This document shows positions 8,142-12,773 of a stretch of 12,773 nt of DNA, piece after piece. The DNA is from a virus. The position numbers and the translations under genes were made by a program. Below the pieces are notes generated by a model. The model made no database searches. It was not told the DNA's origin and saw nothing but the letters and a program-made list of their open reading frames with translations. Within the stretch, counting starts at the first letter, position 1, and each line of letters opens with the position of its first letter. The DNA lies in the UHGV virus genome UHGV-1672225. One strand, written 5' to 3'.

Positions 8142-8798
8142 ATGAAAAGCAACGACGAGAACATCAAGAAAGAAATAGGTCTGCGCATTCAGACTCTACG
8201 GAAACAATCCGGCATGACTGCCGGAGATCTCCAGCAAGTCACTGGAATAGGCTTAAGCACCTTGCAGAACTATGAGGCCGGATTAAGACAACCATCTATA
8301 CCTGCCATCAAGAAAATCGCGCACGCCCTGAAAGCATCAGCGCCTTATATCGCGTGCTTAACAGATAACCCGTTCCCACCCCAGAATACTAACGCTCCTG
8401 TTATTCCTGGGCTTGTAGCTATAAAAAATGACATAGCATCGCACGCCGGAGAAAAGCCAGTGCTGGCGATAGAACAGGAGATTCTACGAAGCAAGAACAT
8501 CAACCCATCGTCTCTGTCAGTTCTCCAGAGCAACGATGAGTTAATGTCACCAACAATATCCCCAGGCTCCCAAGTCCTGATTAATACAGACGATACAGAG
8601 ATTCATGAGGGGATCTATGCCCTTGAAGACAGAAATGGCCTGGTTGTTTTGAGGCACTGTAGAGTCATACCGGGTGACAATGCTGTTATGCTGTCAACCG
8701 AAAGGGATGCTGAAATGAACACTAAGCATCTGAATAACGAGGAATTTAAGCGTTATAAAGTTCTTGGCCGCGTAGTTAGTGTTGTCAACTGGTTATGA
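8142..8798 (+). CDS. CI-like phage repressor (XRE-type HTH plus S24 LexA-like peptidase domain)
   Basis: N-terminal LRIQTLRKQSGMTAGDLQQVTGIGLSTLQNYEAG is HTH-like; the C-terminal 100 aa has an S24-like fold pattern; divergent from the Cro-like gene. Confidence 0.7.
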   Translation: MKSNDENIKKEIGLRIQTLRKQSGMTAGDLQQVTGIGLSTLQNYEAGLRQPSIPAIKKIAHALKASAPYIACLTDNPFPPQNTNAPVIPGLVAIKNDIASHAGEKPVLAIEQEILRSKNINPSSLSVLQSNDELMSPTISPGSQVLINTDDTEIHEGIYALEDRNGLVVLRHCRVIPGDNAVMLSTERDAEMNTKHLNNEEFKRYKVLGRVVSVVNWL

Positions 8799-10573: not shown

Positions 10574-10590
10574 ATTCAGCCATAAAAAAA

Positions 10591-10606
10591 GGCCCCCGAA
10601 GGGGCC
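10591..10606 (-). terminator. Intrinsic terminator hairpin (minus-strand orientation, possibly bidirectional)
   Basis: GGCCCC-cgaa-GGGGCC preceded on the plus strand by 7 A (a U-run on the minus transcript); no T-run on the plus side. Confidence 0.45.
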
Positions 10607-11132
10607 TAATCGCTACTTGCTGCTAATGTTTATCGTCACATTCAGAGCGTTATCAGTAATCTTCCAACCCTCCCCATGTGGCGTAAACAAAGCCCCAGTA
10701 ACAACGATAAAAATACACATACAGTATTTTTTCATTGTATGGCCCTTACAGGCCGTTTCACGGCATCCCCACCGACGAAAACAACGCGAGAGCAAGCACG
10801 GCTGCTTGTGCTTGCATGTACGGCAACGGAGAATCCTCCCCTAAAGTCGGTGCCCGGGTGCGAATCGGCGGGAAGGTCCACAGGTATTTTACGATTATTT
10901 TAAGATTAGTAATAGGAAAGAAATTAAACGAAAAAACTCGTTTATTTTCACAAAATCAGTAACCTACCCACAATCTGTGAGTTTGCAGGCACAACAAGAA
11001 CCACAATTTTTTGAAGCATAATAGTGGACTATTATTACCTTTTGGGTAAAATTAACTTGCTGCTTGTGCTTGCGTGGTTGTTTATACAACAACGTAATGC
11101 TGAAAGGACCGCGAATCCGATCAGCACGAAAG

Positions 11133-11159
11133 AACCGTCCTCAATAGGGCGGTTTTTTT
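11133..11159 (+). terminator. Intrinsic terminator inside the ORF-poor region
   Basis: AACCGTCC-tcaata-GGGCGGTT (8 bp, one G-U) followed by TTTTTGTTT. Confidence 0.5.
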
Positions 11160-11305
11160 GTTTCTGCCTACCAATAAACCCACGCTATGTGGTTGTCTCT
11201 GTTAAAATCCTGCCGTATTGACATGAATGCGCCATTGGTGGACACTTTCCGAGCCGTAGCAAAATCTACGGTCGGGATTGGAACCCCGATAATCATCATG
11301 GCGCA

Positions 11306-11326
11306 TACCGCGTTAGCGGTTTTTTT
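11306..11326 (+). terminator. Second intrinsic terminator in the leader (candidate sRNA 3' end)
   Basis: ACCGC-gtta-GCGGT followed by a 6-T run; a perfect -35 TTGACA lies about 90 nt upstream at 11218-11223. Confidence 0.4.
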
Positions 11327-11491
11327 ATGCGTAAAGCACTGCTACACCCAAATTATGGTGGGGCGTGCGGGGGAGTCGTAAGACTCGCCGGATTCCATGG
11401 TGACCGGTAGTTCCAACCCTGTACGTCTCACCACCCAATGATTGGAACCAGACGGTGGTGAGTATCCTTAACCTTTAAGGGAACTATCACC

Positions 11492-11683
11492 ATGACAAAC
11501 TTACCCCATGACTATTACGTCAATCTCGTAAAGATCCTTCTCAAGAAAGCCTCATACGCCGATAAATTCCGCCTGACTGAAATCATCGAGCGCGAAGCTA
11601 TGCGCATCGCCAGCAACGATAACGCTGTTTCTGACGCAAAAATCTCCCTCGTAACCAAAGTAGTTATGGGAGGTGCAAAATGA
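11492..11683 (+). CDS. Small protein (63 aa) translationally coupled to the antirepressor-like gene (icd-like position)
   Basis: ORF with AAGGGA RBS; its stop overlaps the next ATG (ATGA at 11680-11683). Confidence 0.4.
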   Translation: MTNLPHDYYVNLVKILLKKASYADKFRLTEIIEREAMRIASNDNAVSDAKISLVTKVVMGGAK

Positions 11684-12773
11684 AAACGCTTCCGACCGTT
11701 AACACCCTACAGCCTATCCTGCATAACCAGATCCCCGTTATCACCACGGAGCTGCTTGCCAAACTATATGGCTGTAGCGTCGAATGTCTTCACAGAAATC
11801 ACCACCGTAATAAGTCCCGGTTTACAGAAGGAAAACATTTCATAGTTGTAAAAGGTACAGATCTCCAAAGTTTGAAAATCTCTTTAAGAGATTTTCAAAC
11901 CATCGCGAATAACGTTAGAAAGCTCATCCTCTGGACCGAACGCGGGGCTGCACGTCACGCTAAAATGCTCGAAACCGATCAGGCATGGGATGTATTCGAA
12001 CGGCTGGAAGACTGCTACTTCAACCAGAACGCGCAAACGGCCGCGACCGTAACCGTCTCGCCAAACAATGCTCGTGAGGTTGTCGATACGCTCAACGCCA
12101 AACCGATGTTTTACATTAAAGTGTGCAACAACGAGCCACTCACAACCTCAGCCGATGTTGCCCAGGCATTCAGCACCACAAACAATTCCATCGTTATGGC
12201 CATCGATGCGCTACGCATTCCTCGCACGGCTGCGGCGCGTCACTTCTTTAAAGAGCAACGACCGTTGGAAGGAAGCGACCGCGAAATAACAATCTATCGC
12301 ATGACAAAAGACGGATTTACCTTGCTCATGGAGAGTATCGACGGTCCAGGCGTGAAAGATATCAAGCTGGCCTACATTGAAGCCTTTAACGCTATCAGCA
12401 GCGTGTTAAAAACACAGTACGAGCGTGATCTGGCTAAACGACTGTACCAGGAAAAAACGATTATCCGCGCGGCAACAGAGCATAATCGGCTATTAACGGA
12501 ACCGAACTACAGGAAGGAACTAATCAAGGAGTTTGACAAGGCAACAGGGAAAACCAAAGCGGCGCTAAATCTGCCAGCAATGACTCAGGAAAATGTGATA
12601 TCAGCCTTACTTCTTGATCTGCTCAGAAACGCCAGAGCACTTATCAGCTTTGACGAAAACCTGAATCCTCAGCTCAAGCTACTACCACCGACAGGCAAAG
12701 TAGTCGACCAGGCTGATCACAACAGCATACTCAGCGTACTGGATGCAAACCTGCCAGCCAGGACACTACAGGA
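11680..12773 (+). CDS. ORF6N plus Rha-domain antirepressor-like phage regulatory protein (3' truncated by the window end)
   Basis: Hand translation from ATG 11680 (GGAGG upstream) is open for more than 364 codons to the window end; it is absent from the ORF track because no stop lies in the window. N-terminal region resembles the recalled ORF6N domain; the central region resembles a Rha domain. Confidence 0.6.
   Translation, partial: MKTLPTVNTLQPILHNQIPVITTELLAKLYGCSVECLHRNHHRNKSRFTEGKHFIVVKGTDLQSLKISLRDFQTIANNVRKLILWTERGAARHAKMLETDQAWDVFERLEDCYFNQNAQTAATVTVSPNNAREVVDTLNAKPMFYIKVCNNEPLTTSADVAQAFSTTNNSIVMAIDALRIPRTAAARHFFKEQRPLEGSDREITIYRMTKDGFTLLMESIDGPGVKDIKLAYIEAFNAISSVLKTQYERDLAKRLYQEKTIIRAATEHNRLLTEPNYRKELIKEFDKATGKTKAALNLPAMTQENVISALLLDLLRNARALISFDENLNPQLKLLPPTGKVVDQADHNSILSVLDANLPARTLQ

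Follow-up and report, generated by a model that had tools for sequence, protein, structure and literature searches.

The regulatory region and its genes

On the plus strand of UHGV virus genome UHGV-1672225, a putative promoter is followed by two RNAs belonging to described Rfam families, an IsrK-like leader and a C4 antisense RNA, and then by a 63-codon open reading frame (ORF) and an anti-repressor-like gene. All coordinates are those of the window, that is, the whole stretch of 12,773 nucleotides that was analyzed. Distributed over this region are two sets of short elements, designated a and b. In each set the primed member (a′, b′) lies in C4 and is complementary to one copy upstream (a1, b1) and to another downstream (a2, b2). 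The features are as follows:

11218-11246, plus strand: putative sigma-70 promoter (-35 TTGACA at 11218-11223, 17-nt spacer, -10 GACACT at 11241-11246)
11253-11326, plus strand: IsrK-like leader RNA, equivalent of an a1b1 RNA (Rfam isrK RF01394, 70.2 bits)
11274-11284, plus strand: a1, GGGAUUGGAAC, located in IsrK hairpin 2 (5′ stem and loop) and complementary to the a′ element of C4
11293-11301, plus strand: b1, UCAUCAUGG, in the IsrK linker, 9 bp with the b′ loop of C4, one of them G.U
11351-11438, plus strand: C4 antisense RNA (Rfam RF01695, 84.3 bits)
11392-11403, plus strand: b′, AUUCCAUGGUGA, the 12-nt loop of C4 hairpin II (Rfam alignment)
11409-11419, plus strand: a′, AGUUCCAACCC, the single-stranded C4 linker from hairpin II to the 3′ arm of the closing stem
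11427-11462, plus strand: hairpin presenting a2 in its 18-nt loop (putative function)
11440-11449, plus strand: a2, GAUUGGAACC, target of a′, 5 nt past the predicted 3′ end of C4
11477-11482, plus strand: Shine-Dalgarno-like AAGGGA (SD) serving the 63-codon ORF, between a2 and b2
11487-11494, plus strand: b2, UCACCAUG, perfect 8-nt complement of the b′ loop, over the AUG at 11492
11492-11683, plus strand: 63-codon ORF, occupying the place that icd has in P1 (phrog_7886, E = 3.6e-47)
11680-12773, plus strand: anti-repressor-like gene, incomplete at the window's 3′ end, with GGAGG 7 nt before its ATG

The putative promoter has a perfect -35 box and a weak -10 box, and it is because the latter matches the consensus at 3 of 6 positions only that the promoter is not listed by a consensus promoter scan. 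Its position is that of P1c4 in phage P1, where 7 nt separate the end of the -10 from hairpin 1, and transcription would be expected to start near G11253. The RNA beginning there exceeds the gathering score of the isrK model (50 bits) and is made up of hairpin 1 (11253-11272), hairpin 2 (11273-11288), a single-stranded linker and an intrinsic terminator (11307-11326; ACCGCGTTAGCGGT then T7), the sole strong one that terminator prediction finds in the region. The c4-a1b1 model RF03163 aligns over 11240-11292 along its full 53 positions (38.2 bits, E = 2.3e-8, Rfam run at relaxed threshold), but its gathering score of 46.7 is missed and it is not called; two relatives, L014 and Gifsy-1, do pass that threshold. 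The isrK model corresponds to c4-a1b1 plus the linker and terminator, and it passes here where c4-a1b1 falls short.

C4 matches its own model at positions 1-87 of 87, well over the gathering score of 45 and with zero non-canonical pairs. Aligned to the annotated 77-nt c4 of P1, the mature RNA is predicted to span 11357-11435, or 79 nt. Its fold comprises a 17-bp closing stem (11356-11372 with 11417-11433) resembling a tRNA acceptor and followed by CCACC, hairpin I (11373-11386) and hairpin II (11387-11408), whose b′ loop has a pairing core, CCAUGGUGA, at 11395-11403. Immediately beyond, CTCACCACC (11427-11435) and GGTGGTGAG (11454-11462) form the 9-bp stem of the a2 hairpin, with its loop at 11436-11453. 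The 5′ arm of this hairpin is made of the final 9 nt of C4, and because these nucleotides are held in common, the hairpin and the C4 closing stem are mutually exclusive. Two other Rfam matches were recorded in the window: ryfA, called at gathering threshold on the minus strand (10585-10881), and the snoRNA sR58 at 11434-11455, which in the relaxed-threshold run is noise (16.9 bits, E = 0.23).

The product of the 63-codon ORF has zero Pfam matches, and the ORF is kept in 13 viral contigs with 64-98% amino-acid identity. Its stop codon overlaps the start of the anti-repressor-like gene in the sequence ATGA (11680-11683). The latter encodes a protein with ORF6N (4.6e-18) and Phage_pRha (3.9e-12) domains in Pfam, and it also falls within anti-repressor families of PHROG. 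No intrinsic terminator is predicted at 11439-11800, between C4 and the 63-codon ORF, and the layout suggests that C4, the ORF and the anti-repressor gene are co-transcribed.

A 261-bp core of this region is 100% identical to Escherichia coli plasmid pGMI14-004_3 and to Yersinia phage vB_YpM_39, and the element is therefore a phage-plasmid. The plasmid is circular, measures 48.7 kb and carries RepA, ParA, an XRE repressor, holins and tail genes. Among the 5426 complete E. coli genomes, 2267 contain related sequence.

Pairing elements and their co-variation

How do these elements pair within the window itself? The sequence read-out places GTTCCAACCC, contained in the a′ linker, at 11410-11419 and GGGATTGGAAC at 11274-11284. 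The two pair through 7 bp (GUUCCAA/UUGGAAC), a bulged A11277 and 3 further bp (CCC/GGG), and the complementarity between a′ and a2 amounts to 7 bp. GATTGGAACC occurs in exactly two copies in the window, at 11276 and at 11440 (to 11449). As judged from these sequences, C4 is the molecule predicted to pair with both GATTGGAAC copies, a1 in the IsrK loop and a2.

The preliminary description of this DNA had read the a elements accurately. The bulged complementarity with 11274-11284 exists, although the partner had been placed at 11411-11420, one base too high; the motif does recur in the 18-nt loop of a 9-bp stem at 11427-11462; and the AAGGGA reported at about 11476, upstream of the small ORF, is found six nucleotides long at the place listed above, with the ATG at 11492. 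The proposal of a c4-type pairing was also right as to the family, the small ORF and ant-like context, and the belonging together of the three elements. It was wrong, however, as to the regulator. The candidate small RNA at 11253-11326, which had been cast as the antisense molecule, is according to Rfam an IsrK or c4-a1b1-type leader with target-like copies, and the element at 11410-11419, which had been assigned to a leader, lies inside the C4 antisense RNA (RF01695). The b set (b′, b1, b2), nearer to the ribosome-binding site, was absent from that description, which covered the a set only.

In this one sequence the complementarity exceeds chance in part only. The a′ probe (11408-11419) binds the IsrK-like RNA with -14.0 kcal/mol, a value equalled in 2 of 1000 dinucleotide shuffles, and of 5000 shuffles of 11253-11500, 2 contain an exact 10-mer repeat whose copies enclose a reverse complement of at least 7 nt. 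The earlier expectation of a match better than chance is thus borne out for the a′-IsrK duplex and for the joint pattern, but not for the a′-a2 7-mer alone, which is not significant since an equal or better duplex was obtained in 254 of 1000 shuffles. Counting GATTGGAACC with at most one mismatch over the 12.8-kb window is uninformative (two or more matches in 45 of 200 shuffles). Probes at the level of single elements discriminate from shuffles, whereas RNAduplex applied to whole molecules fails to do so (z between -0.95 and +0.16). The upper of these values is that of the duplex prediction which had been proposed as a check, between 11253-11326 and 11400-11495.

It is the comparison of related loci that, at the sequence level, is decisive for the pairings. 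A near-identical relative is Yersinia phage vB_YpM_41, which is about 96% identical to the window in the flanks and 87.5% identical across the core. Its a set has changed in all three members (a1 AAC>CGT, a′ GUU>ACG, a2 AAC>CGT), and in its b set a G>A change in b′ goes together with C>U in b2. There is also a compensatory pair in C4 hairpin I, and few substitutions are found outside these elements. The 13 viral contigs carrying the same small ORF contain three sets of a alleles and several sets of b alleles in varied combinations, each of them self-consistent, and the alleles are exchanged while the neighboring proteins stay unchanged.

The survey was then widened with a scan of IMG/VR for a pattern that fixed the C4 backbone only (hairpin II stem, AACCC and 3′ arm). 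At least 120 loci in viral contigs were matched, which with 14 other loci give at least 107 unique regions. Among the matches listed and these 14 loci, at least 52 allele combinations were counted, built from at least 12 a′ linkers and at least 43 b′ loops. In essentially every allele class listed, the cognate complements stand at fixed positions on either side, the upstream ones being in the IsrK part. Circularity is avoided, because the search pattern left the targets out.

Pairs were counted on an alignment of 86 distinct related loci among the matches listed. Between a′ and a2, 100% of 602 cells hold standard pairs, with both-sided changes at 5 of the 7 pairs (107 cells), and between a1 and a′ the figure is 99.0% of 595 cells, again with both-sided changes at 5 of 7 pairs. 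For b1 and b′, counted despite variation in loop length, 78% of 651 cells are paired and all nine of the nine pairs show both-sided changes; the abundance of G.U in this duplex points to pairing of RNA rather than to DNA symmetry. In none of the three cases did any of 500 shuffles reach the observed value, and sliding one strand against the other left 23-38% (a′-a2), 22-53% (a1-a′) and 42-51% (b1-b′) of cells paired.

The register between b′ and b2 varies, and alleles were permuted in place of counting pairs. Over the 43 listed loop alleles, the longest perfect complement of b′ averages 8.3 nt in the cognate b2 against 4.8 nt after permutation, and 6.7 nt against 4.6 nt in b1, with 0 of 5000 permutations as high in either comparison. 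Cognate duplexes are better in energy than non-cognate ones by 3-5 kcal/mol. In most of the listed families b2 lies over the SD, and in the family of this window over the AUG. The shuffle control ignores kinship among loci; an artifact of phylogeny alone is made less likely by the slid controls and by the fact that a and b alleles assort independently.

Family membership, anatomy, three-way co-variation and an evolutionary constraint on four duplexes are thereby demonstrated, the co-variation fitting pairing in cis and in trans alike. Read in the light of these alignments, the elements are real and functional, being the parts by which a phage C4 RNA recognizes two sets of targets, together with those targets.

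Relation to P1 and Gifsy-1, and alternative readings

The C4 mechanism has been known from phages P1 and P7 since 1990. In the GenBank record of P1, the order is a1, b1, c4 (77 nt), a2, b2, icd and ant1, the last two overlapping by 4 nt, and the RNA elements of immI agree with those of the window in order and spacing, element for element. In both, a pair of hairpins lies upstream and the second one holds a1 in its loop, b1 occupies the linker, and a hairpin resembling a terminator is present. P1 C4 likewise has a 17-bp closing stem, with a′ (CUGUCAA) in the same linker and b′ (UCACUAAC) as the loop of hairpin II. The a2 element begins 4 nt past C4 in P1 and 5 nt past it here, in both cases within a hairpin built in part from the C4 3′ arm, and this hairpin is found with compensatory changes in its arms in P1 (CCTGCCACC...GGTAGCAGG) and in Gifsy-1. 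The ATGA overlap of small-ORF stop and anti-repressor start is also common to P1 and the window.

The differences concern the site covered by b2, the proteins and the carrier. In P1, b2 overlaps the SD of icd, whereas in the window it covers the AUG. The 63-codon ORF is unrelated to Icd, with which it gives no BLASTP alignment at E ≤ 100, and is a positional analogue only; the ORF6N and Rha anti-repressor is unrelated to Ant1, for which homology was tested and not found. The host element is a 49-kb phage-plasmid and is not P1-like. As between P1 and P7, the specificity alleles differ between close relatives, vB_YpM_41 being the case at hand.

P1 C4 is described as being cut from its precursor by RNase P, giving a stable product of about 77 nt with repressor activity in trans (PMC11143913). 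P1 Ant is presented as inactivating the primary repressor C1, its full repression requiring C4 (PMC8198154, PMC12197685). Set beside these accounts, the region very probably represents an immI-type, anti-immunity operon carried by a 49-kb phage-plasmid and working by a mechanism of the P1 type. Transcription would start at about 11253, and most transcripts would end at the IsrK-like terminator (11326). The read-through RNA would carry C4, from which RNase P and 3′ trimming would, as in P1, yield an RNA of about 11357-11435. C4 would then expose its b′ loop (11392-11403) and its a′ linker (11409-11419) to bind a2 and b2 in the mRNA of the same operon. By analogy, the a′-a2 and b′-b2 duplexes would bracket the SD and cover the AUG of the 63-codon ORF, excluding the 30S subunit. 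Through the ATGA overlap, anti-repressor synthesis would be blocked as well, and the untranslated RNA would, as in P1, probably be subject also to Rho polarity.

The IsrK-like leader would provide a second copy of the targets, a1 and b1, in the same order, and could bind both C4 elements, whether as part of the read-through transcript (in cis) or in the form of the short terminated RNA (in trans). C4 would thereby be antagonized or modulated, which fits the switching on of AnrP by IsrK over-expression in Gifsy-1. Immunity specificity would be set by the a′ and b′ sequences, for which vB_YpM_41 has a different and self-consistent set of alleles. In this scheme, processing, translational block, coupling to ant and antagonism by IsrK are carried over from P1 and Gifsy-1 as analogies. 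Less certain is the role of a1 and b1, which may act as a mimic of a2 and b2 on a separately terminated RNA.

Gifsy-1, from Salmonella, is the second reference system. Its IsrK / orf45 (STnc1160) / AnrP region matches the isrK and C4 models of Rfam in the same order and also has a1, b1, a′, b′, a2 and b2, while its AnrP shares 50% identity (E = 2e-46) with the N-terminal domain of the anti-repressor-like protein. Its b2 (AUCACCGGAGGG) sits directly on the SD of anrP and, unlike in the window, no separate small ORF follows C4. Furthermore, the 'orf45' frame of Gifsy-1 crosses C4, with AUG107 and AUG120 in the C4 5′ arm, whereas the corresponding frame of the window closes after 8 codons.

In Gifsy-1, IsrK supplied in trans lifts anrP translation 139-fold, an activity lost in mutants of the IsrK loop (PMC4825925). 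Both Hfq binding by IsrK and trans-activation of anti-repressor translation are results obtained in Gifsy-1 only (PMC4825925). When the numbering of that work is mapped onto the Gifsy-1 sequence, the mutated residues G28 and G31 fall in a1 and C159 and C162 in a′; its helix b-I (G28-C162, G31-C159) is a1.a′. Basal anrP translation went up, not down, when a1 was mutated in cis, and constitutive STnc1160 strengthened IsrK toxicity rather than weakening it (PMC4825925). Neither of these two results fits a simple decoy role of IsrK. The a′ mutants have high basal expression, and this fits a C4 that acts in trans and must match a2 as well.

The published model of Gifsy-1 is a structural switch in cis and trans: a1.a′ and b1.b′ would pair within the read-through mRNA and hold it in an inactive fold, short IsrK in trans would displace this pairing and open the ribosome-binding site, and processed C4 would not be a repressor. 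For the window, the predicted minimum free energy structure of 11253-11500 is indeed the cis duplex (a1.a′ with 7+3 bp, b1.b′ with 9 bp) at -98.3 kcal/mol, in which AUG and SD are paired, against -95.1 kcal/mol for separately folded IsrK and C4; folding prediction yields the hairpin 11427-11462 in the cis-duplex conformer only, as one of its arms is taken from the 3′ arm of C4. As in the window, little energy separates the two predicted conformers of Gifsy-1, for which native gels and compensatory mutants provide support (PMC4825925). The switch nonetheless leaves unexplained the equally tight co-variation of a2 and b2 with a′ and b′, as well as the placement of b2 on the SD or AUG in all listed families. 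The double mutants of a1 and a′ reach 224 and 327 units against 4 units in the repressed state (PMC4825925); such a failure to return to repression would follow if a′ needed to match a2 too, which was not mutated. With a stable processed species, STnc1160, in Gifsy-1 and a P1 C4 acting in trans, we regard the switch as a rival that still counts but is unlikely.

Could C4 instead act chiefly on transcription? In the P4 (seqA / CI RNA / seqC) and N15 (CA RNA) systems, a processed small RNA likewise lies between upstream and downstream complementary sites, and these are described as working by premature transcription termination, whereas the target in the window is on the start codon. In structure, IsrK and C4 are homologous to P4 seqA and CI RNA (PMC3632133, PMC4825925), and an intrinsic terminator does sit between a1/b1 and C4. 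Even so, the stretch from C4 to the ORF is without a predicted intrinsic terminator, b2 on the start codon here and on the SD elsewhere speaks for ribosome exclusion, and the ATGA layout of small ORF and ant is that of P1, where, according to the annotation of the P1 record, repression is translational with secondary polarity. Control of mainly the P4/N15 type at flanking sites is accordingly improbable.

Very little credence can be given to the reading of the preliminary description, in which the IsrK hairpin loop would be the antisense effector on an mRNA leader by the ribosome-binding site. The loop does complement 11410-11419, but this segment falls within C4 and 58 nt before the SD, the copy near the ribosome-binding site (11440-11449) is of the same sense as the loop and so cannot pair with it, and in Gifsy-1 IsrK activates anrP translation rather than repressing it (PMC4825925). 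Finally, that the repeats are chance matches or protein-binding sites in DNA is next to incredible: a′-a2 is weak as a single 7-mer and two near-copies of GATTGGAACC are ordinary over 12.8 kb, but this reading is ruled out by three-way compensatory variation in the 86 listed loci and by the G.U pairs of b1-b′, and the allele swaps with unchanged neighboring proteins speak against it as well.

Predicted immunity specificity in phage-plasmids and prophages

Beyond the P1-type operon itself, a further proposal can be made, which we consider possible though rather doubtful. The IsrK leader would be a target mimic of C4, the anti-repressor switch would be set by how much terminated IsrK there is relative to processed C4, the 'orf45' mechanism of Gifsy-1 would be C4 repression relieved by an anti-antisense RNA, and a′ and b′ would make up a combinatorial, freely recombining code. 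If this is true, at least 12 a′ and at least 43 b′ alleles, in at least 52 combinations, would define dozens of hetero-immunity groups among enterobacterial prophages and phage-plasmids, and the Gifsy-1 mutants C159U and C162U would be a′ mutants that no longer match a2.

The c4 and c4-a1b1 motifs were defined by Weinberg et al. (2010; PMC2864571), and Barquist et al. (2013; PMC3632133) spoke of an 'IsrK-C4 immunity system', which they equated with P4 seqA/CI and found also in P1, P7 and N15. APSE phages have been reported to carry both IsrK-like and C4-like RNAs. The IsrK paper of Hershko-Shalev et al. (2016; PMC4825925) leaves P1 c4 uncited, and IsrK and c4 are handled as unrelated systems both there and in a 2025 review. 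This type of immunity switch was thus already well known, and its link to IsrK has stood since 2013, so that the conceptual gain is modest. What is added here is the three-way co-variation, the prediction that vB_YpM_39 is hetero-immune to vB_YpM_41, and a testable new view of what was found in Gifsy-1.

For the phage-plasmid family concerned, which occurs in E. coli and among Yersinia pestis phages, a regulatory core is now annotated where GenBank shows three 'hypothetical protein' lines. That Gifsy-1 mutants map to a1 and a′ suggests a possible re-examination of the published model. From their allele pairs, vB_YpM_39 and vB_YpM_41 are predicted to be hetero-immune at the level of the anti-repressor, and the three-way co-variation offers a sequence-level rule by which cross-immunity between prophages may be predicted.

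C4 RNA at the Gifsy-1 isrK locus

Gifsy-1 (L136) carries a related module, in which the published "orf45" is the C4 antisense RNA.

L136 34131-34316, minus strand: C4 RNA, published as "orf45" of the Gifsy-1 isrK locus (Rfam, 69 bits)

Both of the "orf45" AUGs fall within the 5′ arm of C4, and the residues mutated in the 2016 study, G28/G31 and C159/C162, belong to a1 (the target in IsrK) and to the C4 recognition element a′, respectively (PMC4825925). Gifsy-1 also carries the downstream targets a2, GAUUGGCGUC, and b2, AUCACCGGAGGG, the latter lying on the Shine-Dalgarno sequence (SD) of anrP; both are absent from that paper's account, which leaves P1 c4 uncited (PMC4825925).

Genes flanking the module

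Directly upstream of the IsrK-C4 module, this phage-plasmid carries a ryfA RNA and a divergent candidate sRNA, set out here with the regulator discussed below.

10585-10881, minus strand: full-length ryfA RNA (141.8 bits)
about 11052-11160, plus strand: candidate sRNA divergent from ryfA, with a promoter-like site (11025-11052) and a terminator-like hairpin
8142-8798, plus strand: XRE-family regulator of 218 aa, adjoining ParA and a divergent early operon

The peptide encoded by the ryfA RNA, MKKYCMCIFIVVTGALFTPHGEGWKITDNALNVTINISSK, is small, hydrophobic and TimP-like, and the candidate sRNA contains 15 nt, GCAAGCACAAGCAGC, exactly complementary to the 5′ part of ryfA. Together they look like a type I toxin-antitoxin pair of the TimP/TimR (RyfA/RyfB) type.

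At the other end of the module, the ORF6N+Rha frame of the anti-repressor stays open over 364 codons up to the window end (11680-12773), unlike its counterpart in the RefSeq plasmid NZ_CP028194.1 (L137 13441-14583), annotated as a truncated ORF6N pseudogene and a separate Rha-family regulator. The putative primary repressor, and candidate target of the anti-repressor, is likely the XRE-family regulator.

Allelic variation and exchange of the antisense module

Within 11454-11494 of the window, the predicted minimum free energy fold of the read-through RNA joins GGUGGUGA, otherwise the 3′ side of the a2 hairpin, to the b2/AUG segment UCACCAUG, and the SD pairs with 11466-11471; the start site of the 63-aa ORF would be sequestered in cis, an arrangement putatively specific to the window's b allele.

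Three contigs carry either another RNA in the module's place or two modules.

L012 1379-1464 and L013 1376-1460: sRNA-Xcc1 family RNA in the IsrK+C4 position (76 and 70 bits, respectively)
L125 3174-3385 and 4882-5093: two complete IsrK-C4 modules on one viral contig, about 1.7 kb apart

Since in L012 and L013 the sRNA-Xcc1 family RNA precedes a homologue of the 63-aa ORF (71% identical), the antisense module has been exchanged and the ORF kept. The two L125 modules differ in their a′/b′ alleles (TACGCC with GTTCTCTTGCGA versus CTGCT with GTTCTCTGATTGA).

Alleles were counted over the earlier loci (L001-L014) and the IMG/VR contigs from the C4-backbone scan (L015-L134; at least 120 contig matches). 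Among the matches listed, 52 combinations occur within one C4 backbone family, drawn from 43 different b′ loops of 7-13 nt and 12 different a′ linkers, and the genes that follow them differ. An SD of the GAGG type is partly or wholly covered by b2 in most families. Across these loci, the specificity elements of C4 are strongly polymorphic and assort independently.
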